Source: Dehalococcoidia bacterium UBA5629 (lineage in GTDB: Bacteria > Chloroflexota > Dehalococcoidia > GIF9 > UBA5629). From it: a stretch of 37,819 nucleotides of DNA. The stretch lies in assembly GCA_002421445.1 (NCBI GenBank), contig DIKB01000080.1, positions 288-38,106 on the forward strand. The letters are read 5' to 3'. The notes under the pieces were generated by a model that was not told where the DNA came from, ran no database searches, and saw nothing but the letters and a program-made list of their open reading frames with translations. This document shows, one piece after another, positions 4,708 to 31,949 of this stretch. The position numbers and the translations under genes are program-made. Position 1 is the first letter of the stretch, and every line of letters begins with the position of its first letter.

Positions 4708-5412
4708 TTATTCAGCAAATTTATAGCCAACACCTCGTACGGTGATGATGTATGCGGGTTTTGTCGGGTCAACCTCGAGTTTCTGTCTCAACCATCTAAT
4801 GTGTACATCGATGGTGCGGCTATCTCCGGCATAGTCGTAATGCCAGATATGTTCCAGTAATTGATCTCGAGTTATCACCTGCCCTCTATGCTGTATCAGG
4901 AAAGATAGTAGGTCAAATTCTTTTGGACTCAGGTCGATAATCGATTCTCCCCGTGTAACTCTGTGTCTACCGAAATCAATCTCCATGTCTTTTGTTTTGA
5001 GAACATTTTTCTGTTCTACAGACAGTGCTTTTGCTTGATGTATCATGTCTGCACGTCTGAGCATGGCTTTGATGCGTGCCATCAACTCACGGATACTGAA
5101 TGGTTTGGTTACGTAGTCATCCGCACCCATCTCCAATCCCACTACCTTATCTATTTCATCTGTTTTCGCTGTCAGCATAAGAATTGGAATCGATGTTTCC
5201 TGCCTGAGAATTCGACAGACCTCCAAACCGTTGAGTTTGGGAAGCATGATGTCAAGGATGACAAGATCGGGTTTCTCTGTCCGTATGAGATCGAGGCCCT
5301 GAGCACCATCGGCAGCAGAAATGGCAATATAGTGCTCTTTGACCAGATTATATGTCAGCACTTCGCGTAGAGTCGGGTCGTCTTCAATTATTGCTATTTT
5401 TGGCGTTTCCAT
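4708..5412 (-). CDS. phoP: OmpR/PhoB-family response regulator (PhoP/PhoB-like)
   Basis: 234 aa with a receiver domain (DLVILDIMLPKLNG, TAKTDE, KPF) and a winged-helix output domain (LSPKEFDLLSFL...TVRGVGYKF). It is 2 nt from the kinase gene and adjacent to the pst operon. Confidence 0.8.
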   Translation of the reverse strand: METPKIAIIEDDPTLREVLTYNLVKEHYIAISAADGAQGLDLIRTEKPDLVILDIMLPKLNGLEVCRILRQETSIPILMLTAKTDEIDKVVGLEMGADDYVTKPFSIRELMARIKAMLRRADMIHQAKALSVEQKNVLKTKDMEIDFGRHRVTRGESIIDLSPKEFDLLSFLIQHRGQVITRDQLLEHIWHYDYAGDSRTIDVHIRWLRQKLEVDPTKPAYIITVRGVGYKFAE

Positions 5413-5773
5413 GAATTTTATGTCTTTCTAGAATAGTATAGATTGTATCAGTTTTAAGCTTGTTGTGTACTTGTATCGGTGTCAATATGCTGCACAACAC
5501 GAATGTATTGAATATGTCGACTTTATGATGTCAGCGTCGCCAATGGTATTTATGCAGCATCCGATATGATTTTCCGGTTGAAGCCATGTTTGACGGATGG
5601 CTATGAATGCAATAAACTGTATGCCGACGTTCTAAAAAACAGTCGAGTGCGATTATATCTTATCATTGCAGCTGCGCTCAAAACCCAATGATAGTATGCT
5701 GTGTAACCTGCAAATTCCATTACTCAGTAATGTTCGTCGGAATACGATTTTGTGACAGGAAGGAAGAGGCACG

Positions 5774-7516
5774 ATGACTTCTGAACGAAAAGAACCTATG
5801 TTAGAGACACTGCGGCATTCAACATCTCATATTATGGCTCAGGCTGTAAAGTCTTTGTTTCCTGATGCCAAATTCGGTATTGGCCCCTCAATTGAGGATG
5901 GCTTCTACTATGATTTTGAGCTTGCCCGTGCATTGGCCCCGGAAGATTTGGCTTTGATTACGGAAAAAATGAAAGAGATTGCTGCGGCAGACCTTCCATT
6001 TGTCCGTGAAGAGATTGACAAAGCGAAAGCTCAGGAACTGTTTGCTAATCAACCGTATAAACTGGAGCTTATCAATGACCTTCCTGATGAGAACGTGACG
6101 ATTTACACACAGGGAGAATTTACCGATCTGTGTCGCGGACCTCACGTAAAATCATCCGGTAAACTCAAAGCTTTCAGGCTGACGACTATTGCCGGAGCAT
6201 ACTGGAGGGGCGATGAGAAACGCCCCATGCTTCAGCGTGTTTATGGTGTCGCATTTGATACTGAGGCAGAACTCGAAGAGTATCTCACCCGTGTTGCCGA
6301 AGCGAATAAACGCGACCACCGGAAATTAGGCAAGGAATTGGATTTATTCAGCCTTCACGAGGAGTTCGGTCCAGGTCTCGTTATGTGGCATCCGAAAGGC
6401 GCTATGGTGCGACAGATCGTGGAGGATTTCTGGAGGGCGGAGCATCTGAAGCGCGGTTACGATATTGTCTATACTCCACATATCGCCAAGCTGGATTTAT
6501 GGAAGACCAGCGGTCACTGGGATAATTACCGTGATAACTTATACTCTCCAATGGATATTGATGGGCAGGACTATATCGTCAAACCGATGAATTGCCCCGG
6601 ACACATTATTATCTATAAGACACAGTTGCGCAGCTATCGTAATCTGCCTCTGCGCATAGCCGAACTTGGGACAGTGTATCGCTATGAGCGCTCCGGAGTG
6701 CTTCATGGTCTTGCTCGTGTTCGCGGCTTTACCCAGGATGATGCGCATATCTTTTGCCGTACAGATCAGATTCGTGATGAGGTTGCAAGCGTTGTCGATC
6801 TGGCGCGGTTTATGATGAAGACCTTTGGATTCAATGACTATAAAATGCTTCTCTCTACCCGACCTGAGAAAGCCATTGGCAGCCTGCAATCCTGGGAAGA
6901 AGCGACAGAAGCGCTGAAAAACGTACTGGAATTGCTTGACACCCCCTATGAGATAGATCCGGGCGAAGGGGTTTTCTACGGTCCAAAAATCGATGTGAAG
7001 CTGACTGACGCTCTGGGACGGATGTGGCAGGGGCCGACAATCCAGGTTGATTTTCAATTGCCGCAGCGTTTCGATGTCAACTATGTAGGAGCAGATGGTG
7101 CCGAACATCAGGTTATTATGATTCATCGCACTGTGCTTGGCAGCATGGAACGCTTTATGGCCTGTCTGGTTGAACATTATGCCGGTGCTTTCCCCGTATG
7201 GCTGGCGCCAATTCAGGTGACGATCATACCGATTGCTGATCGCCATATCGAATATGCCAATCAGGTAGCGGGCAAACTGAAGGAAAGGGATGTACGAGTT
7301 CGCGTTGATGATCGAACCGAGAGAATGAACATGAAAATACGCGAAGCTCAACTTGAGAAAGTTCCCTATATGTTCATTGTCGGCGATAAAGAAGTCACTT
7401 CAAATGCAGTTTCTGTCCGGTTGAGAACCGGTGAAGATCTGGGGTCAGTGCAAGTCTCCGATTTCGTTGACAGAATGGCTACTGTTATCAAAGAGAAATC
7501 TTGTGATTCACTTTGA
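5774..7516 (+). CDS. thrS: Threonine--tRNA ligase, short form lacking the N-terminal TGS domain
   Basis: 580 aa. It starts directly in the editing/SAD domain (LRHSTSHIMAQAV...GFYYDFE), followed by class II motifs (FRLTTIAGAYWRG, RGFTQDDAHIF, GSMERF) and an anticodon-binding domain. An in-frame TGA lies 7 codons upstream of the ATG. SD is GGAAGGAAGAGG. Confidence 0.95.
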   Translation: MTSERKEPMLETLRHSTSHIMAQAVKSLFPDAKFGIGPSIEDGFYYDFELARALAPEDLALITEKMKEIAAADLPFVREEIDKAKAQELFANQPYKLELINDLPDENVTIYTQGEFTDLCRGPHVKSSGKLKAFRLTTIAGAYWRGDEKRPMLQRVYGVAFDTEAELEEYLTRVAEANKRDHRKLGKELDLFSLHEEFGPGLVMWHPKGAMVRQIVEDFWRAEHLKRGYDIVYTPHIAKLDLWKTSGHWDNYRDNLYSPMDIDGQDYIVKPMNCPGHIIIYKTQLRSYRNLPLRIAELGTVYRYERSGVLHGLARVRGFTQDDAHIFCRTDQIRDEVASVVDLARFMMKTFGFNDYKMLLSTRPEKAIGSLQSWEEATEALKNVLELLDTPYEIDPGEGVFYGPKIDVKLTDALGRMWQGPTIQVDFQLPQRFDVNYVGADGAEHQVIMIHRTVLGSMERFMACLVEHYAGAFPVWLAPIQVTIIPIADRHIEYANQVAGKLKERDVRVRVDDRTERMNMKIREAQLEKVPYMFIVGDKEVTSNAVSVRLRTGEDLGSVQVSDFVDRMATVIKEKSCDSL

Positions 7517-24090: not shown

Positions 24091-24390
24091 ATGAAAATGA
24101 ACAACGATCTTGAATTCAGAATAGAGATAGAATATGAACAGGATGGTGAAGGGTACCATGCATATTGTCCTGCTTTAAAAGGATTGCATGCATCCGGTGA
24201 TACCAAAGAAGAAGCAGTTGACAATGCTTGCGAATTGGCTCGTTTATATATTAGCTCCCTCATAAAGCACAAAGAGCCTATCCCCATTGGCATTAAAATG
24301 GAAAAATCTGGCACAAAAGATAGCAATATTGAGCATAAAGGCAAGTCCGGTTGTGTTTCCAGGGAGTTATTAGTAGGTTCAGTTGCGTGA
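24091..24390 (+). CDS. hicB: HicB-family (UPF0150) antitoxin-like protein without a recognisable DNA-binding domain
   Basis: 99 aa (FRIEIEYEQDGEGYHAYCPALKGLHASGDTKEEAVDNACELARLYI), a HicB N-terminal fold signature. GGAG at 24084-24087 favours ATG 24097 over ATG 24091. The stop overlaps the next gene's start. Confidence 0.7.
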   Translation: MKMNNDLEFRIEIEYEQDGEGYHAYCPALKGLHASGDTKEEAVDNACELARLYISSLIKHKEPIPIGIKMEKSGTKDSNIEHKGKSGCVSRELLVGSVA

Positions 24391-24641
24391 ATTATCCTGG
24401 AAACATATGGAAACAACTCAAGAATATTTCTGCCGATGATTTAATAGCGGCGCTTCAGAAAGATGGATTTATTCCTGATTTAAGTAGCGGTTCAAGGCGA
24501 GTGTACAGGCATAGTGACGGCAGAAGAATCGCAATAGATTATCATCCCCAAAAGACCTTTGGCCCCAACTTGTTAAAGGCGTTATTGGATGATGCAAGTT
24601 GGAAAGAGTCCGATCTCAAAAGATTGAAATTAGTGAAATAA
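24387..24641 (+). CDS. hicA: HicA-family (YcfA-like) toxin-like protein
   Basis: 84 aa from GTG 24387, where start and stop overlap as GTGA. The sequence is ...DDLIAALQKDGFIPDLSSGSRRVYRHSDGRRIAIDYHPQKTFGPNLLKALLDDASWKESDLKRL. This has the HicA layout, but GSR replaces the usual GSH. Confidence 0.65.
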   Translation: MNYPGNIWKQLKNISADDLIAALQKDGFIPDLSSGSRRVYRHSDGRRIAIDYHPQKTFGPNLLKALLDDASWKESDLKRLKLVK

Positions 24642-24695: not shown

Positions 24696-25484
24696 TCATA
24701 TATTTTTGTGCTTTGTCTCTCGATCTTGCGGAATAGGCCATTCGATTATCCTGGTCGACCATAGATTATAGATAGCTTTATCCAATGTGCTGCGGCGCGG
24801 TTCGCGGATGTCCAGTTTTCTGTCTAAGATACGGTCATGGAATGTTTCGATGAAATGGCATTGCTGCCTGAATGTACGTATCGTGTTATCCTCACCATCC
24901 AAAATAACGTAGTTCAGTTGTCTGGCAAATGGCTCTATTATCTCGCGTGCGTGTCCGCAAACACGGGTAAAGAAATATTCGATCTGTTTCTCACGATGCC
25001 TTTGGAATCGTTTCGCAGAAGAGCCGCCTTGCCGGTGACGCGCGTGGACATTGCCGGTTCCGACTTTGGATGCCAGTACTGTTTCTCCCTCCGCTACCGC
25101 GATTGCATAAGCGCCGAGCCGTATCAGCAGCATGGCGCATACACGTTCGTTTTTAAGAAGATCGCGCAGCGGATTTACCTCGCAGCGGTTGAGCGCTACG
25201 GATTGCTGAAGAGGAAATGGCGGCAGCAGTATATACAGCATCTCCTGAGAATAGAGAAGCGCTGCTCCGGTGGGTGAAGTCTCAATACGACGGATGAGAG
25301 CATCGGGCAATTGAAATTCAGGTCGATTAATCTGGATTACTGCTTTGCCCGATGCCCCGTCTGATTTTGCGGGCACGTGCAGACTGATGGCGATAGTGCC
25401 TTTTGTCTCAATCTCATCGAGCCATGCCAGCATGGTTCGTCTGCCTAGTTGATACTGTTTCAATTCTTCCATGTTTTCTTTCAC
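24696..25484 (-). CDS. Vms1/ANKZF1-like (VLRF1, eRF1-fold) release-factor-like protein; putative peptidyl-tRNA hydrolase or tRNA nuclease
   Basis: 262 aa. The core MLLIRLGAYAIAVAEGETVLASKVGTGNVHARHRQGGSSAKRFQRHRE and the tail RILDRKLDIREPRRSTLDKAI match, by eye, my recollection of the Vms1/ANKZF1 VLRF1 domain: (hydrophobic strand)-G-x-FA-x-A-V, then HK...Y..R.KQGGSQ, then a C-terminal basic P/T-rich helix. It lies 17 bp downstream of mutS2 on the same strand. GTG start at 25484; alternative ATG at 25472. Confidence 0.55.
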   Translation of the reverse strand: MKENMEELKQYQLGRRTMLAWLDEIETKGTIAISLHVPAKSDGASGKAVIQINRPEFQLPDALIRRIETSPTGAALLYSQEMLYILLPPFPLQQSVALNRCEVNPLRDLLKNERVCAMLLIRLGAYAIAVAEGETVLASKVGTGNVHARHRQGGSSAKRFQRHREKQIEYFFTRVCGHAREIIEPFARQLNYVILDGEDNTIRTFRQQCHFIETFHDRILDRKLDIREPRRSTLDKAIYNLWSTRIIEWPIPQDRETKHKNI

Positions 25485-25501
25485 GTATCTTCACTACCGT
25501 C

Positions 25502-27889
25502 TCATTGCAGGTTTACGGTAGTGGTTCCATCTCCGCCCTCGCCTTTAGTGCCCGGAGTGAATGATTTGACCAGCGGGTGCGATGCCAGTACCTCACGAAC
25601 GATCTGACGGACCGTGCCCGTGCCGTAGCCGTGGATAATTCTGACGCTGCTGAGGCTGGCAAGAAAAGCATCGTTCAGGTAAGTATCTATGATCCCCTCT
25701 ATTTCGACGCTTCTTTTTCCCCGTAAATCAAGCTCCATTGATACCGGCTTGCTGCTGCGTTTGAGCGAAAAATTCTGAGGGAGCTTGAAATGGACCTGCC
25801 TGTCCGTGATTTTTTCGATATCGGGCAGGTCAACGGTGATTTTGGTGCTACCGGCCTGCACTTCAATAGTGCCTTCTTTCTCAGCGATAGAGATAATGAC
25901 TCCTTCCAATCCTTCATTGATCAATCGGACGCGCTCGCCAATAGCGAGATCAGTAATAGACGGTGTTTCTCCTGTTTGCCCAACCCTGATTTTCCTCTGC
26001 CATCCGGGGCTATCTATACGTTCGTGCAACTGCGCCAGCGCTTGTTTCGCTTTTGCAACATTCTCCGCTTTCTGCTGCTTCTTCAGTTGTGTGGTAACGT
26101 TTTTAATCATGTTTTGAAGCTGTGATGCTTCCAGCAGCAGCCTGTCCTTCGATTGCCGCAACAAATCGCTTTCCTGTTGCTCCAGATCATGTTTCTTTTG
26201 TTCCCAGCCTTCTTTCAGTTCCTCTGCTTCCTGTACTCGCTGCGTCAGCTTCTTTTGCAGTGTCTCCGCCTTTTGTTTTTCAGCCATGAGATCATGCAGG
26301 ACGGTTTCCATCTCCACTGATCCCGATGATGACAGCATCTCTTTTGCCGAGTTGATGATATCTTCCGGCAACCCCAGACTGGAGGCGATGCTGAGGGCGT
26401 TGCTGCCTCCCGGTATTCCGATGCTGAGGTGATATGTTGGTTTTAATGTTTCAGCATCGAAGTCCAGCGAGGCGTTTTTTATGCCCGGCGTTTTATAGGC
26501 AAACGCTTTCAGTTCGCTGAAATGGGTAGTTGCCACAACGATAGTTTTGGTCTGGAGAAATCGGAGTAGAATAGCCTGTGCCAGCGCCGCGCCTTCTGCC
26601 GGATCCGTGCTTGTCCCAAGTTCATCCAGCAATACCATGCAGTTGTTGGTTAAGGCTTTAAGTATTCTATTGATGTTCCCGATATGCCAGCTAAATGTGG
26701 ACAATGTGTGTTCAATGCTCTGTTCGTCACCGATATCGGCAAACACATTTTTGAAGATTGGTACGCTGCTTTCCGGTAATGCGGGAATCGGTATCCCTGC
26801 CTGCGTCATTAAAACAAGCAGCCCGACCGTTTTGAGCGCCACTGTCTTGCCGCCCGTGTTCGGGCCGGTGATAATCAATGTAGAAAAATCCCGCCCGATT
26901 TCTACCGTCAGAGGCACCGCCGCACCCTTTAACAGGGGATGACGGGCATTGACCAGCCTCAGTATGCGGGCATCCGGTCTCTCTTCGGTGCTTTTCTTAT
27001 CATGATGCGGGATTGTAGGCACGGCAGCATGTGCTTTCTCGGCATACCGCGCCTTCGCCAGCGCAAAGTCCAGCTCTGCAGTCAGACTGACGCTTAACGT
27101 TATCTCCGATGCATGTGCTGCTATTTCTTCGCTCAAAGCGGACAGGATACGTTCAAGTTCCAGCTTTTCTTCAATAATGAGGGACCGGAGTTCGTTGCCC
27201 ATATCGATTGTGTTCATCGGCTCGATGAATACGGTGGATCCTGTATTGGAGACATCGTGGACGATGCCTTTGACGTCTCGCCTGTTTTCCGTTTTGACGG
27301 GTATGACATAGCGCCCTTCCCGTTCGGTGATGAGCGGTTCCTGCAATAGTTTCTGACCCTTCTCCGATTTGATGAAGGAGTCCAGACGCTCAATAATCCT
27401 CTGCCGCCCTTCTCTTAGCCGGCGGCGCACATCCAGCAGCTTGTCAGAGGCACTATCTAATATGTCTCCCTGCGGGCTGATGCATCTCCGTATCTCCGAT
27501 TCCAGGTGTTTCTGCTCAATAATGCCCTGCGCAATCTTCCAGAGTAGAGGGACATCATCCGATTGCCTCTGAAATTTCGATCGCAACTCGCGCAACGCGA
27601 TAAGCGTATCCTTTACCGCGAGCAATGCCTGTGCATCAAGCATTTTGCCTTTAGTCGTCAGCCCGACGATCTCTCGTATATCGGTGACACCGCCTATTGA
27701 AAACTCCGGTTTCAGTGATAGCAGACGGCACGCTTCGTCCGCCTGCTGCAGCAGCAGCATTATCTGCTCGGGATTGGTTAGCGGTTCAATCGCCCGGGCT
27801 ATCTCGTTACTGGCGCTGAATGAAGTGAATGATGCGAGTATTTCGCGTATTTTAGGAAATTCCAGTAATTCCGTGCTTTGTTTATCCAT
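25502..27889 (-). CDS. mutS2: Endonuclease MutS2 (MutS paralogue with a C-terminal Smr domain)
   Basis: 795 aa with Walker A (GPNTGGKTV), DELGTSTDP, a long coiled-coil linker, a KOW-like segment and a C-terminal Smr domain (LDLRGKRSVE...VRIIHGYGTGTVRQ). Confidence 0.93.
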   Translation of the reverse strand: MDKQSTELLEFPKIREILASFTSFSASNEIARAIEPLTNPEQIMLLLQQADEACRLLSLKPEFSIGGVTDIREIVGLTTKGKMLDAQALLAVKDTLIALRELRSKFQRQSDDVPLLWKIAQGIIEQKHLESEIRRCISPQGDILDSASDKLLDVRRRLREGRQRIIERLDSFIKSEKGQKLLQEPLITEREGRYVIPVKTENRRDVKGIVHDVSNTGSTVFIEPMNTIDMGNELRSLIIEEKLELERILSALSEEIAAHASEITLSVSLTAELDFALAKARYAEKAHAAVPTIPHHDKKSTEERPDARILRLVNARHPLLKGAAVPLTVEIGRDFSTLIITGPNTGGKTVALKTVGLLVLMTQAGIPIPALPESSVPIFKNVFADIGDEQSIEHTLSTFSWHIGNINRILKALTNNCMVLLDELGTSTDPAEGAALAQAILLRFLQTKTIVVATTHFSELKAFAYKTPGIKNASLDFDAETLKPTYHLSIGIPGGSNALSIASSLGLPEDIINSAKEMLSSSGSVEMETVLHDLMAEKQKAETLQKKLTQRVQEAEELKEGWEQKKHDLEQQESDLLRQSKDRLLLEASQLQNMIKNVTTQLKKQQKAENVAKAKQALAQLHERIDSPGWQRKIRVGQTGETPSITDLAIGERVRLINEGLEGVIISIAEKEGTIEVQAGSTKITVDLPDIEKITDRQVHFKLPQNFSLKRSSKPVSMELDLRGKRSVEIEGIIDTYLNDAFLASLSSVRIIHGYGTGTVRQIVREVLASHPLVKSFTPGTKGEGGDGTTTVNLQ

Positions 27890-27910
27890 GTATTATATGC
27901 CTCTTGTATA

Positions 27911-27939
27911 TTGACTGTTGTCCTTTAGTCAACTACAAT
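27911..27939 (+). promoter_or_regulatory. Candidate promoter for yebC-ruvC-ruvA
   Basis: TTGACT (27911-27916), a 17-nt spacer and TACAAT (27934-27939). The -35 hexamer and the spacer end form a 6-bp inverted repeat, TTGACT...AGTCAA. Sequence match only. Confidence 0.35.
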
Positions 27940-28051
27940 CTTGCGGTATGTTTAAACGGGCTTTTGTTGGTGTCCGTACAGTGTTTGTTTATTGTATATC
28001 ATTTACCGCTAGTTTACATGGTGGTAGAATTTAGTAGAGAGGTATTTTAAG

Positions 28052-28807
28052 ATGTCAGGACATTCGAAGTGGTCTAAGATAAAGCGTTCTAAAGGTAATG
28101 CTGATGCCAGTCGTGGACAGTTATTCACAAAACTTACCAAGGAGATTATATTCGCTTCCCGTCAGGGTGGCGTTAATCCTGAAGGCAATTTTCGGTTGCG
28201 CCTGGCCATACAGAAAGCGCGGGACAACAACATGCCTCTGGATAATATCGAACGAGCCATCAAGAAGGGTAGTGGTGAATTGGGTGGCGCAATACTCGTG
28301 GAGTTAACATTGGAAGGGTATGGGCCGGGTGGTGTGGCTGTCATGGTGGAGGCGACGACGGACAATCGTAACCGTACGGTGAGCGATGTACGCAGTACGC
28401 TGGCAAAGCACGGCGGCAATCTCGGTGAGAACGGCAGTGTCTCCTGGATATTTGAATCAAAGGGCGTTCTGGTGGCTGAAGTAAACCCCAAGAACAAGGA
28501 TGATATCGAGCTTCTGGCAATCGATGCCGGTGCTGATGATGTGAAGGAGGGTGAGGATTATCTTGAAATTTTAACTCAACCTCAACAACTGGAAGAGGTG
28601 AGAAAGGCCGTCGAAGGGAAAACGAAAGTGCTGTCCTCCGAGGTGTCTCTTATTCCTAAAACGATGGTTGTGCCCGATGAAAAAGGGTATTTTTCGATGT
28701 TGAAACTGCTGGATCATCTGGAAGAGCTGGATGATGTTCAGCATGTTTATGCTAATATAGATTTCCCGCCGGATATTATGGAGAAATACGAATCAGGGAC
28801 TGTGTAA
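28052..28807 (+). CDS. yebC: YebC/PmpR (TACO1) family protein
   Basis: 251 aa (MSGHSKWSKIKRSKGNADASRGQLFTKLTKEI...), the canonical family N-terminus. It is upstream of ruvC, as in many bacteria. Confidence 0.93.
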   Translation: MSGHSKWSKIKRSKGNADASRGQLFTKLTKEIIFASRQGGVNPEGNFRLRLAIQKARDNNMPLDNIERAIKKGSGELGGAILVELTLEGYGPGGVAVMVEATTDNRNRTVSDVRSTLAKHGGNLGENGSVSWIFESKGVLVAEVNPKNKDDIELLAIDAGADDVKEGEDYLEILTQPQQLEEVRKAVEGKTKVLSSEVSLIPKTMVVPDEKGYFSMLKLLDHLEELDDVQHVYANIDFPPDIMEKYESGTV

Positions 28808-29304
28808 TGCGTATTCTTGGTATTGATCCGGGCACGCTGCATATGGGATATGGGCTGATTGATGACGTCAACGGCGTCATCAGCATGGTTGAGTGCGGTG
28901 TGTTGTCGCTTCCCAAGACGGTTCCTCTGGAGAAGCGGTTGCATCGCTTTTATGTGGAATTGCTGGATATAATTGGCTCTTTTCATCCTGAGGAGGTAGC
29001 AGTTGAGGAACCGTTCGTTGCTCTCAATGTGCGTTCGGCCCTGGCTATAGGAAGAGCACAGGCGATTGCGATTTTAGCTGCAGCCGGCAATAATTTGCCA
29101 ATATTCCGCTACTCGCCGACCCAGGTGAAACAGCAGGTAACCAATTATGGGAGAAGCAGCAAAGCTCAGGTAGAGACTATGGTGAAGCTTCAACTCGGGC
29201 TGTCCGTTTTGCCGCAACCGAGCGATGCTGCGGATGCGCTGGCTATAGCTATTTGCCATCTTCAGCAGAGACGCCTGAATTCTTTGATCTCAAAAATACG
29301 CTGA
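28807..29304 (+). CDS. ruvC: Crossover junction endodeoxyribonuclease RuvC
   Basis: 165 aa (MRILGIDPGT...VAVEEPF...SDAADALAIAICH). The ATG overlaps the yebC TAA as TAATG. Confidence 0.93.
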   Translation: MRILGIDPGTLHMGYGLIDDVNGVISMVECGVLSLPKTVPLEKRLHRFYVELLDIIGSFHPEEVAVEEPFVALNVRSALAIGRAQAIAILAAAGNNLPIFRYSPTQVKQQVTNYGRSSKAQVETMVKLQLGLSVLPQPSDAADALAIAICHLQQRRLNSLISKIR

Positions 29305-29313
29305 GAATTAACG

Positions 29314-29895
29314 ATGATAGTTGCCTTAGACGGAATTTTACAGAGCATCAGTGCCAATTCCATTGTGGTGAAAATCGGCCCTATCAGCCTTGAAGTCCAC
29401 ATGCCTGTCTCGGCTATCGTCAGTCTCGGTTCTCCGGGCGATGCTGTATCTATCCGTACGTATTTACATTATCGCGAGGATGCTATCGCACTTTACGGTT
29501 TCACCTCTTCCGAACAATTGTTCCTGTTCCGCAAGCTTCTTACGGTAACCGGTGTCGGTCCGAAAGTTGCACTCGGGCTACTTTCCGGTTTGAGTGCTGA
29601 CAAGCTGGCTGCTGCCATCATCAATGATGATGTAGAGGCATTGACTCAGATATCGGGCGTCGGCAAGAAGACCGCAGCCAGGCTGGTTGTGGAATTGAAG
29701 ACGACACTGGAAAAGGAGTGGCAGGGCGAGACATCTGCCGTCTTTGTTAGAGAGGATACAGAGGTTGTCTCCGCGCTATTGAGCCTCGGCTACTCATTGA
29801 AAGAGGCGAAACAGGCAGCCTCTCTTATCTCCGGAGATGGGCTTGGTACAGAAGAGAAGTTAAGGCTGGCGCTCCGCAATCTGTCGAAAACATAG
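29314..29895 (+). CDS. ruvA: Holliday junction branch migration complex subunit RuvA
   Basis: 193 aa with an OB domain, two HhH motifs (LLTVTGVGPKVAL, LTQISGVGKKTAARL) and a C-terminal domain III. Confidence 0.9.
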   Translation: MIVALDGILQSISANSIVVKIGPISLEVHMPVSAIVSLGSPGDAVSIRTYLHYREDAIALYGFTSSEQLFLFRKLLTVTGVGPKVALGLLSGLSADKLAAAIINDDVEALTQISGVGKKTAARLVVELKTTLEKEWQGETSAVFVREDTEVVSALLSLGYSLKEAKQAASLISGDGLGTEEKLRLALRNLSKT

Positions 29896-29945
29896 TCCAT
29901 CATTCCTGATTTTTCTGTATGGGTCCGCTTCTGCGGAGGAGTTCA

Positions 29946-31949
29946 ATGTCCGAGTTCGTTTTAACCACAGATTTCAAATTAACCGGTGATCAACCTGCGG
30001 CCGTTGATAAACTTGTTGACGGTGTTCAACAGGATTACAAGAAACAGACGTTGCTTGGGGTTACCGGCAGCGGCAAGACGTTTGCTATGGCTAACGTTAT
30101 CGCCAGGGTCAAGAGACCGACGCTCGTTATCTGTCACAATAAGACGCTTGCCGCCCAGTTGACTACGGAGTTCAAGGAGTTCTTCCAGAACAATGCCGTG
30201 GAGTACTTCGTCAGCTATTACGATTACTATCAGCCCGAAGCGTATATCCCGAAGACGGATACCTATATTGAAAAGGACATCGATATCAATGAGGAGATCG
30301 ACAGGATGCGCCACTCGGCGACGAGGTCGTTGCTGGAACGCCGTGACGTAGTCATCGTTGCCTCGGTATCCTGTATCTATGGTCTGGGAGAACCGGAGGA
30401 ATACCGGAGCTTCATCGTTTCGCTGAAAAAAGGAGAGAAAGCCATCAGAGACAGGATCATTCGCCGTCTGGTGGATATGCAGTATGAGCGGAACGATTTT
30501 CAGCTGACGCGCGGCAAATTCCGGGTACGCGGCGATACTCTTGAAGTGTTTCCTGCGTATGAAGAAGAGCTGGTACGGGTTGAGTTCTGGGGTGATGAGA
30601 TAGAACGTATTAATATTGTCGATCCATTGACCGGTGAGATGCTTTCCGATCGTGACGCTCTCGATCTGTATCCGGCCAAGCATTTCGTCACGTCTCACGA
30701 ACGCCTCATGTTGGCCATCGCTTCCATCAGAGAGGAGCTTCAACAACAGTTGAAGGTGCTGGACGGCGAGGGGAAATTGCTTGAAGCTTCCCGTCTGGAG
30801 ATGCGTACCAATAACGATCTGGAGATGCTGATTGAGACAGGATACTGCAATGCGGTTGAGAACTATTCACGGCATCTTCAGCAGCGTCCTGCCGGCAGTG
30901 CACCGTGGACGTTGATTGATTATTTCCCCGATGACTTTTTGCTGTTCATCGATGAATCGCATATGACGCTGCCGCAGATACGGGGCATGTACCATGGCGA
31001 TGCCTCGCGCAAGCAGACGTTGATCGACTATGGCTTTCGTCTGCCATCGGCACGGGATAACCGTCCGCTTACCTTTGAGGAGTTCGAAGGGCGGGTGAAT
31101 CAGGTTGTCTATGTATCGGCCACGCCGCGTGCCTACGAGAGAGAACACAGCAAACAGATCGTTGAACAGTTGATCCGGCCCACTGGGCTGTTGGAGCCGA
31201 CAATCGAGGTGAAGCCGACGAAGGGACAGGTTGATGATCTTATCCAGCAGATCAGGGAACGGGTGGGTAGGCGCGAGCGCTGTCTGGTGACCACGCTAAC
31301 CAAGAAGATGGCTGAGGAGCTTGCCGAATATCTGCTGGAGATGGACATCAAGACTCACTATCTGCATTCCGAGATCGATACGCTGGAGCGTGTGGAGATA
31401 CTTCGCGATCTACGGCTTGGTGTGTATGATGTGATCGTTGGTATCAATCTGCTTCGTGAGGGGCTTGATCTGCCGGAAGTGAGCCTTATTGCCATCCTGG
31501 ATGCGGACAAGGAAGGTTATCTGCGGTCGAGGGATTCGCTCATTCAGACGATGGGCAGGGCGGCACGCCATGTCGAAGGCCATGTCATTATGTATGCCGA
31601 CAGGATCACAAAATCAATGCAGGATGCGATGGATGAGATAATTCGTCGCCGAAAGATACAGGAATCGTACAATAAAGAGCACAATATTACGCCTCAGTCT
31701 ATTCAGAAGGCGATCAAGGATATCACCTCCATGGTGAAGGTAGTTTCCGAGCAGAGAGCGCGTTATGAAGCGACACCTATCTCGAAAGAAGAGCTTATGC
31801 GTTTGATCAAAGACCTTGAGACTCAGATGAGGAAGGCAGCCAAGAATCTTGAGTTTGAAAAAGCTGCTTTGCTCAGGGACCGGATAGTGGAATTGAGAAC
31901 TGATGCGGAGATTCTGGCGCCTCTGGTTAAACCGAAAAGATCGAAGTAA
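29946..31949 (+). CDS. uvrB: Excinuclease ABC subunit B
   Basis: The sequence from ATG 29946 is [23 protein letters not shown]...GVTGSGKTF, with GGAGGAG 5 nt upstream. Helicase motifs and a C-terminal UVR domain ([13 protein letters not shown]) are present. The tracked ORF start at 29919 has no SD. Confidence 0.95.

Follow-up and report, generated by a model that had tools for sequence, protein, structure and literature searches.

Organization of the mutS2-acVLRF1 locus

A 37,819-nt stretch of DNA from Dehalococcoidia bacterium UBA5629 (contig DIKB01000080.1; the whole stretch is referred to below as the window) carries, in tandem on its minus strand, a gene for a MutS2 protein and a gene for a small protein of the acVLRF1 family, which has the fold of the eRF1 release domain. 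The following analysis concerns this gene pair, its conservation among relatives, and the possibility that it forms a pathway for rescuing collided ribosomes. The features of the locus are as follows.

24696..25472, minus strand: acVLRF1-family gene, 258 aa (Pfam PF18859, AlphaFold2 fold, start set by homologues)
25005..25046, minus strand: putative catalytic loop HARHRQGGSSAKRF, residues 143-156 of 258 (hidden Markov model (HMM) alignment to aRF1)
25473..25501, minus strand: 29-nt spacer from the mutS2 stop to the acVLRF1 start, without a terminator-like hairpin
25502..27889, minus strand: mutS2, 795 aa, predicted collision sensor and ABC-type ATPase splitter with C-terminal Smr (TIGR01069 and Pfam matches)
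27890..28051, no strand: intergenic region between mutS2 (minus) and the divergent yebC-ruvC-ruvA genes (plus), from the gene layout

The original prediction, which had been made from the letters of the window alone, placed both open reading frames (ORFs) correctly on the minus strand, as the ORF listing of the window confirms, and the 262-aa ORF that it described, running from a GTG over 24696-25484, contains both of the strings that it quoted (MLLIRLGAYAIAVAEGETVLASKVGTGNVHARHRQGGSS and LDIREPRRSTLDKAI). The 17-nt gap that it gave between the genes holds if the GTG at 25484 is the start; however, the N-terminus shared with close homologues, ME[ED]LKQYQIGKK.MLAWLD, aligns from the ATG at 25472, and we therefore take that codon as the start and 29 nt as the gap. 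Public gene calls (P0001) begin at a later internal Met, giving a protein of 245 aa from which 13 conserved N-terminal residues are dropped (window 25433-25472). The proposal that the spacer holds neither terminator nor promoter was also borne out by simple scans, in which no terminator-like hairpin was found between the genes and promoter-like matches around the pair did not rise above shuffled controls, one weak match (9/12) lying inside the 3′ end of mutS2. From the gene layout the promoter of a mutS2-acVLRF1 operon is presumed to lie in 27890..28051, where a simple scan gave promoter-like matches on the plus strand only and so identified none on the mutS2 side.

The MutS2 protein

With the NCBIfam mutS2 equivalog model TIGR01069, whose cut-off is 400 bits, the product of the upstream gene scores 818 bits from residue 3 to residue 794 of 795, and Pfam finds in it the domains that define MutS2, namely MutS_V, MSSS (KOW/SH3-like) and a C-terminal Smr domain. 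The Walker A motif GPNTGGKTV and the C-terminal Smr domain from which the protein had first been called MutS2 are thus confirmed. Its domains and motifs, all on the minus strand, are distributed as follows.

25508..25732: Smr domain (Pfam PF01713, 71 bits)
25616-25633: Smr motif HGYGTG (motif search)
25718-25729: Smr motif DLR, replacing DxH (motif search)
25826..25942: MSSS (KOW/SH3-like) domain, residues 650-688 (Pfam PF20297, 32 bits)
26330..26878: MutS domain V (ATPase), residues 338-520 (Pfam PF00488)
26615-26635: Walker B VLLDELG (motif search)
26840-26866: Walker A GPNTGGKTV, residues 342-350 (motif search)

In Bacillus subtilis MutS2 the KOW and SMR domains recruit the protein to collided ribosomes, which its ATPase splits while leaving the mRNA uncut; Smr domains with DLR in place of DxH are thought to be non-nucleolytic, and the B. 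subtilis protein has this same configuration (PMC10897456). Among the 61 MutS2 proteins found linked to acVLRF1 in the survey described below, DLR is present in 58, HGxGTG is present as well, and both Walker motifs are intact in at least 54. Judged by these motifs, the operon-linked proteins are of the B. subtilis splitter type. MutS2 is also matched over most of its length by phrog_30120 (496 bits), a PHROGs family without an assigned function, and MutS2-like genes therefore occur in phage-catalogued sequences.

Family and fold of the acVLRF1 protein

Profile searches place the downstream protein in the acVLRF1 family, with 90.1 bits against a cut-off of 27.1 for Pfam acVLRF1 (PF18859; E = 1.8e-25, profile positions 3-129 of 130). 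It also scores above cut-off for Pfam baeRF_family10 and eRF1_2 (29.0 versus 27.1 bits for the latter), obtains 60.8 bits with the NCBIfam aRF1/eRF1 equivalog model, and is matched by the NCBIfam acVLRF1 model at E = 6.9e-31, below that model's cut-off. An AlphaFold2 model built on 40 homologues has two small domains and is predicted with good confidence (pLDDT 87, pTM 0.81). In a Foldseek search of the PDB with this model, eRF1 and aRF1 come first (E ~4e-9, range 4e-9 to 1e-7), followed by the bacterial aeRF1-like hibernation factor Balon (E ~3e-7), yeast Vms1 on the 60S subunit (6r84_R; E = 1.4e-5, TMq 0.43, 197 columns) and, also for the Vms1 release domain, 5whg (E = 7.7e-5); Pelota/Dom34 is matched as well. 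When the family profile was instead searched against PDB sequences, archaeal aRF1 was found at E = 1.5e-14 and Vms1 was not detected at E<=1.

The alignment with aRF1 extends from an N-terminal helix and the 'SLYIPP' strand through the entire M domain, leaves out the codon-reading part, and stops short of domain C. Because these parts are omitted, the protein is a minimal eRF1 consisting of a vestigial N-domain and the M (release) domain, with no C domain. This is the architecture described for acVLRF-1, a release domain with a short N-terminal extension and without stop-codon-binding or C domains (Burroughs and Aravind 2019, PMC6514570), and the 258-aa protein conforms to it; the RNase-H-like fold of its M domain, with a GG loop followed by an Arg-rich helix, is likewise that of the aeRF1 superfamily. 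The likeness to Vms1 and ANKZF1 that had originally been proposed stands at the level of the VLRF1 family and the fold, whereas in sequence archaeal aRF1 is closer to the protein than Vms1 is. Burroughs and Aravind set acVLRF-1 in the same VLRF-1 ('Vms1-like') clade as Vms1 (PMC6514570), a placement that was not reproduced here. Since there is no Gln after the GG and there are no accessory domains, the protein is a relative rather than a member of the eukaryotic Vms1/ANKZF1 family. Its closest named relatives, and all 80 of the genome loci considered next, come from metagenome-assembled genomes of Dehalococcoidia or other Chloroflexota.

Linkage of mutS2 and acVLRF1 across Chloroflexota

The clade of the window protein was surveyed with a pattern specific to it (the QGG clade), taking one genome per GTDB species and the best 80 of 219 species' loci, of which four lack an upstream flank and 76 are informative. 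MutS2 lies directly upstream on the same strand in 61 of these 76 species-level Dehalococcoidia loci, although in five of the 61 a gene of about 190 aa sits between the two; the spacers are mostly 4-40 nt, measured to the ORF-defined start. Clustering of neighbouring ORFs identified MutS2 as the sole widely common neighbour (61/82 loci, the next family being present in 15), and the genes that flank the pair vary by lineage on both sides, so the linkage is not a reflection of general synteny. The 15 non-adjacent cases fall in about three clades on the acVLRF1 protein tree, a grouping that indicates secondary loss of an ancestral arrangement.

The same neighbour was found outside this clade. In a metagenome scan seeded with representatives that keep the canonical Gln, a sister clade was recovered whose loop reads HxRHKKGGSSQ and of which one member is named as Dehalococcoidia; it has MutS2 directly upstream in 64 of 68 informative loci, which were not dereplicated. 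Because this Gln-keeping clade shares the linkage, the operon is older than the loss of the Gln. Among more distant acVLRF1 branches, with 27-38% identity to the window protein, four contexts have the two genes in reverse order, acVLRF1 preceding MutS2.

L168: acVLRF1 then MutS2, 91-nt gap
L170: acVLRF1 then MutS2, toxin-antitoxin insertion between them
L171: acVLRF1 then MutS2, 27-nt gap
L173-L175 (three marine contigs): acVLRF1 then MutS2, 4-bp overlap

The insertion in L170 (6916-9365) comprises zeta-toxin-like, PIN/MazE and HTH toxin-antitoxin genes together with mobile genes, and acVLRF1 and MutS2 remain on one strand around it. In all, the adjacency recurs in more than 120 related loci and is far beyond chance, and the conservation that the original prediction proposed to survey is found in the QGG clade, in its sister clade and, with the order reversed, in four further branches. 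Survival of the linkage through shuffled flanks, mobile insertions and inversion of gene order is strong comparative evidence that the two products share a function.

The gene found between mutS2 and acVLRF1 in five species (L005, L007, L017, L022, L063) encodes 155-197 aa and matches an IS200-like Y1 transposase model with 20.6 bits, below the cut-off of 23. It was considered as a third component of the system and rejected in favour of a mobile insertion. The same IS200-like gene lies upstream of acVLRF1 in loci where the link to MutS2 is broken (L009, L010); its recurrence exactly at the junction and where MutS2 is missing suggests that the junction is a preferred insertion site and that the element has driven rearrangements. 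A defence or phage role for the pair was likewise rejected, since PADLOC returned nothing for either protein and PHROGs matched MutS2 only.

Surroundings of the gene pair

The rest of the window is ordinary chromosome, with a phosphate-type ABC transporter, a two-component system, thrS-infC, pheS-pheT and proS, as well as ispG, rseP, dxr, panBCD with a pan RNA motif, and yebC-ruvC-ruvA-uvrB. Within its 37.8 kb there is no tRNA or tmRNA gene, neither RqcH (NFACT) nor its S4-domain partner is present, and no rescue gene besides mutS2-acVLRF1 turned up. The yebC-ruvC-ruvA-uvrB cluster (27890-31949) is divergent from mutS2 in this contig and its duplicate and in no other species examined. On the other side, a hicB-hicA antitoxin-toxin pair (24097-24641, plus strand) converges on the acVLRF1 gene and ends 54 nt from its stop; this neighbour is found in this contig only and is not kept in related loci. 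The Rfam pan motif RF01749 (23210-23294, minus strand; 38.2 bits, gathering score 36.2) lies 5′ of a gene with DUF2520/F420_oxidored Pfam matches, which is followed by panD-panB-panC.

A proposed splitting and release pathway

Given the conserved linkage and the families of the two proteins, it is highly probable that MutS2 and acVLRF1 act in one ribosome-rescue pathway. The particular form of this pathway that we favour on balance, with more reserve, is a two-gene operon in which MutS2 splits collided ribosomes and acVLRF1 frees the nascent chain from the 50S subunit. By orthology with the B. subtilis protein, MutS2 would sense collided ribosomes through its KOW/Smr end and use its ATPase to split the stalled 70S, leaving a 50S subunit with peptidyl-tRNA. 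Lacking both a codon-reading domain and a domain for binding a GTPase or ABCE1, acVLRF1 could then enter the 50S on its exposed A-site side and bring the invariant GG loop to the peptidyl-transferase centre, where the chain would be freed by ester hydrolysis or, as with Vms1/ANKZF1, by a cut at the 3′ end of the tRNA. Production of both proteins from one transcript would match the supply of the releaser to that of the splitter. The profile, structure and neighbourhood results thus support the sensor/splitter plus releaser arrangement that had been suggested for the window, with release by acVLRF1 an activity that we infer. That the pathway would be self-contained, as was first suggested, is less secure, one acVLRF1 branch having another partner.

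The distribution of other ribosome-associated quality control (RQC) factors leaves room for such a pathway. In Table S1 of PMC11317155, RqcH is recorded for about 26% of the 1,306 Chloroflexota genomes and for 0 of 6,679 Actinomycetota, and both phyla are essentially devoid of RqcP and YlmH; the genome counts given in PMC11633108 for 41 Chloroflexota have mutS2 in 35 and rqcH in 26. A motif scan for RqcH over the 1.84 Mb of collected loci, which are locus stretches and not whole genomes, gave no match. Because mutS2 is commoner than rqcH and RqcP/YlmH are near zero, many Chloroflexota have a splitter without a known downstream pathway, a gap that acVLRF1 fits. In lineages without RqcH and RqcP the pair would replace the Bacillus route of tagging followed by Pth.

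The putative catalytic loop and the limits of the linkage

Several observations weigh against this proposal, and those that touch its chemistry concern the catalytic loop. The acVLRF-1 family was defined with a GGxSQ motif (PMC6514570), and in the window protein and most members of its clade the corresponding residues are GGSS[A/S], without the Gln of GGQ and GGxSQ. In the HMM alignment the GG of the window loop, RQGGSSAKRF, falls on the GG of aRF1 GGQSQ and the following Ser of GGxSQ is kept, while the GGQ Gln is replaced by Ser and the GGxSQ Gln by Ala. Of the 120 closest database homologues, three keep GGxSQ and the other 117 have GGSS[S/A], in nearly all cases immediately preceded by a Gln. 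The loss is not confined to close relatives, as 100 of 148 family representatives (clustered at 50% identity) have GGxSQ and 48 are without it, 20 of the 148 having no Gln at position -1, +1 or +3 relative to the GG. The deposited Vms1(Q295L)-60S complexes, moreover, carry according to their PDB entry titles a mutation equivalent to the lost Gln.

The remainder of the loop is nevertheless strongly conserved. Across 40 homologues the GG, the Ser after it, the RF and the His and Arg residues on either side show no or almost no variation (H..R.H.R..GG.S..RF.R.R), whereas inactive relatives typically lose conservation of this loop (Burroughs and Aravind, PMC6514570), and this pattern argues for a functional loop, an active site that has not decayed. 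The Gln that precedes the GG (QGGSS[A/S]) was considered as a relocated GGxSQ Gln. Of the 29 representatives with such a Gln, 25 lack the canonical one, but these amount to one clade, and 20 other representatives have no Gln at any of the three positions; compensation was rejected and this residue is read as a clade signature. With 48 of 148 representatives lacking the GGxSQ Gln and 20 lacking any loop Gln, catalysis by acVLRF1, if any, cannot on this sequence evidence depend on the GGQ/GGxSQ Gln side chain. In class-1 release factors, both bacterial and eukaryotic, both glycines are essential and substitutions of the Gln reduce hydrolysis but do not abolish it. Vms1 and ANKZF1, for their part, have been reported to cut the 3′ end of the tRNA and not to hydrolyse the ester. 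A loop that is Gln-less and otherwise invariant appears compatible with either ester hydrolysis or tRNA 3′ cleavage. More tentatively, then, many Chloroflexota may possess a two-gene, tag-free RQC whose Vms1-like releaser relies for its chemistry on the GG backbone and His/Arg residues, for example in tRNA 3′ cleavage; the chemistry is supposed to be Gln-free because a large part of the family does without the 'catalytic' Gln.

The other unfavourable points concern the family and its partners. No member protein of the acVLRF1 family has experimental support, and the bit score of the window protein with the NCBIfam acVLRF1 model (NF041024), 107.5, is below the strict cut-off of 125, although that model appears to be tuned to another branch of the family. 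One distant Chloroflexota branch, with the loop KNRHRAGGSSQRRFERSRER, pairs acVLRF1 with an Abhydrolase_10 (PF20091) protein in place of MutS2: the acVLRF1 gene lies 3-48 nt downstream of a gene for 665-693 aa (L163-L167; for example L167:3943-5964 and 6001-6732), and three distinct sets of flanking genes surround the pair. The Pfam match is the sole annotation of this second conserved partner, for which no NCBIfam or PDB sequence match was found. In L166 two small TIR-domain genes (5080-5962) lie between the Abhydrolase_10 gene and acVLRF1. Two further sampled branches have neither MutS2 nor Abhydrolase_10, and mutS2 is recorded in 0 of 3,213 genomes of Actinobacteria, the other home of the family, in Table 1 of PMC11633108. 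Since hydrolase-paired and partnerless branches and mutS2-free Actinobacteria exist, acVLRF1 can work without MutS2, and the MutS2 partnership marks several Chloroflexota branches and not the whole family.

Alternative explanations

The existence of acVLRF1 proteins without MutS2, in Actinobacteria and in some Chloroflexota branches, would be explained if acVLRF1 were a stop-codon-independent release factor that acts, like ArfB, on the intact stalled 70S, with MutS2 subsequently recycling the vacant ribosome. The eRF1 M-domain fold and the GG loop also speak for such an activity. However, the protein lacks any sensor of the decoding centre or mRNA channel comparable to the eRF1 N domain or the ArfB C-terminal tail, its N-terminal part being vestigial (PMC6514570); a collision in mid-message leaves mRNA in the A site of the stalled ribosome; and Vms1, the closest functional analogue, works on the free large subunit. 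We therefore regard release on the 70S as unlikely. Slightly less probable again is a non-catalytic role in which acVLRF1 serves, like Pelota/Dom34, as an A-site cofactor that helps MutS2 to engage or split the ribosome. The pairing of an eRF1-family protein with an ABC-superfamily ATPase has an evident parallel in Pelota-ABCE1, Pelota/Dom34 is among the Foldseek matches, and the canonical Gln has been lost in the window clade and in a third of family representatives. Yet the GG and flanking loop are invariant where inactive relatives typically lose them (PMC6514570), the C domain by which Pelota and eRF1 contact ABCE1 is missing, and ribosome splitting by B. subtilis MutS2 proceeds with no partner of this kind (PMC10897456).

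The Foldseek match to Balon raises the further possibility that acVLRF1 is a hibernation or protection factor, linked to MutS2 through a common stress regulon and not through a pathway. Balon, however, has three domains and functions together with EF-Tu, acVLRF1 lacks the C domain, and the eRF1/aRF1 matches are stronger; moreover, the tight operonic coupling, with a 4-bp overlap and in both gene orders, points to a stoichiometric partnership, and this explanation is very improbable. Least credible of all is that the adjacency is meaningless or is tied to the older DNA-recombination role proposed for MutS2. Such a role could be suggested by the divergent ruvC-ruvA-uvrB cluster beside mutS2 in the window, but that neighbourhood is restricted to this contig and its duplicate, while the link to acVLRF1 is kept in more than 120 loci, in both orders and with shuffled flanks, and a release-factor-fold protein has no plausible role on DNA. 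The survey leaves this last explanation close to refuted.

Comparison with known systems

Splitting by MutS2 followed by release through acVLRF1 would combine features that are found separately in characterized systems. As in Vms1/ANKZF1, a release domain of the eRF1 type, with no part in codon recognition or GTPase binding, is proposed to act directly after splitting. In contrast to the eukaryotic proteins, acVLRF1 is without the Rei1 zinc finger, the ankyrin repeats, the VIM and the Cdc48-binding parts (Pfam detects no accessory domains) and lacks the GxxQ/GGxSQ Gln, its loop having the length of that of aRF1 and aligning with it gap-free; genetic coupling to the splitter, moreover, is a feature of acVLRF1 and not of Vms1. 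The window system and the RQC of B. subtilis have orthologous MutS2 proteins, which agree in their domains and in the DLR/HGxG configuration of Smr, and presumably share the 50S-peptidyl-tRNA intermediate. The two differ in what follows, as in Bacillus the chain is Ala-tailed by RqcH/RqcP and then released by the housekeeping Pth, no dedicated release factor being known (PMC11317155), whereas here a release-factor-fold gene is coupled to mutS2.

The best fold and sequence matches are to aRF1/eRF1, and these proteins and Pelota, together with ABCE1, also provide a precedent for pairing an eRF1-family A-site protein with a ribosome-splitting ABC-type ATPase. The ATPase in the present case belongs to the MutS family and is not ABCE1, however, and acVLRF1 lacks the NIKS/YxCxxxF domain and the C domain and has Ser at the Gln of GGQ. 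Like acVLRF1 as proposed here, ArfB is a small rescue release factor that stands alone and does not require a stop codon, but it has the unrelated bacterial release factor fold with GGQ, senses the mRNA channel through its C-terminal tail and acts on the 70S. Balon is, like acVLRF1, a bacterial member of the aeRF1 superfamily; it differs in retaining three domains, in acting together with EF-Tu and in being non-catalytic, and no connection of Balon with MutS2 emerged from the present analysis.

Implications

Both gene families were known and are named in Pfam and NCBIfam; what appears to be new is their linkage, which we could not find described in the full-text literature searched, though subscription papers might still mention it. 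The paper that defined acVLRF-1 describes the family as stand-alone and never mentions MutS2 or Smr (PMC6514570), and it is older than the discovery of the ribosomal role of MutS2. According to a paper of 2024, bacteria have no known termination factor dedicated to RQC (PMC11317155). The system is best described as a bacterial RQC, built from known parts, that would include a dedicated eukaryote-like release step.

How the chain leaves the 50S after splitting by MutS2 is the least understood step of bacterial RQC, and what MutS2 feeds into where RqcH/RqcP are missing, as in most Chloroflexota, is the question that the operon addresses. An order-independent and deeply conserved mutS2-acVLRF1 operon names a concrete candidate for a dedicated nascent-chain release factor. 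If the proposal is correct, acVLRF1 would be the first bacterial termination factor dedicated to RQC and would correspond, in prokaryotes, to the step that Vms1 carries out in eukaryotes; the acVLRF-1 family would thereby receive its first function. The Gln-less loops of the family would form a natural set for studying the chemistry of release, and the eukaryote-like pairing of a splitter with a releaser would then exist in bacteria as well.

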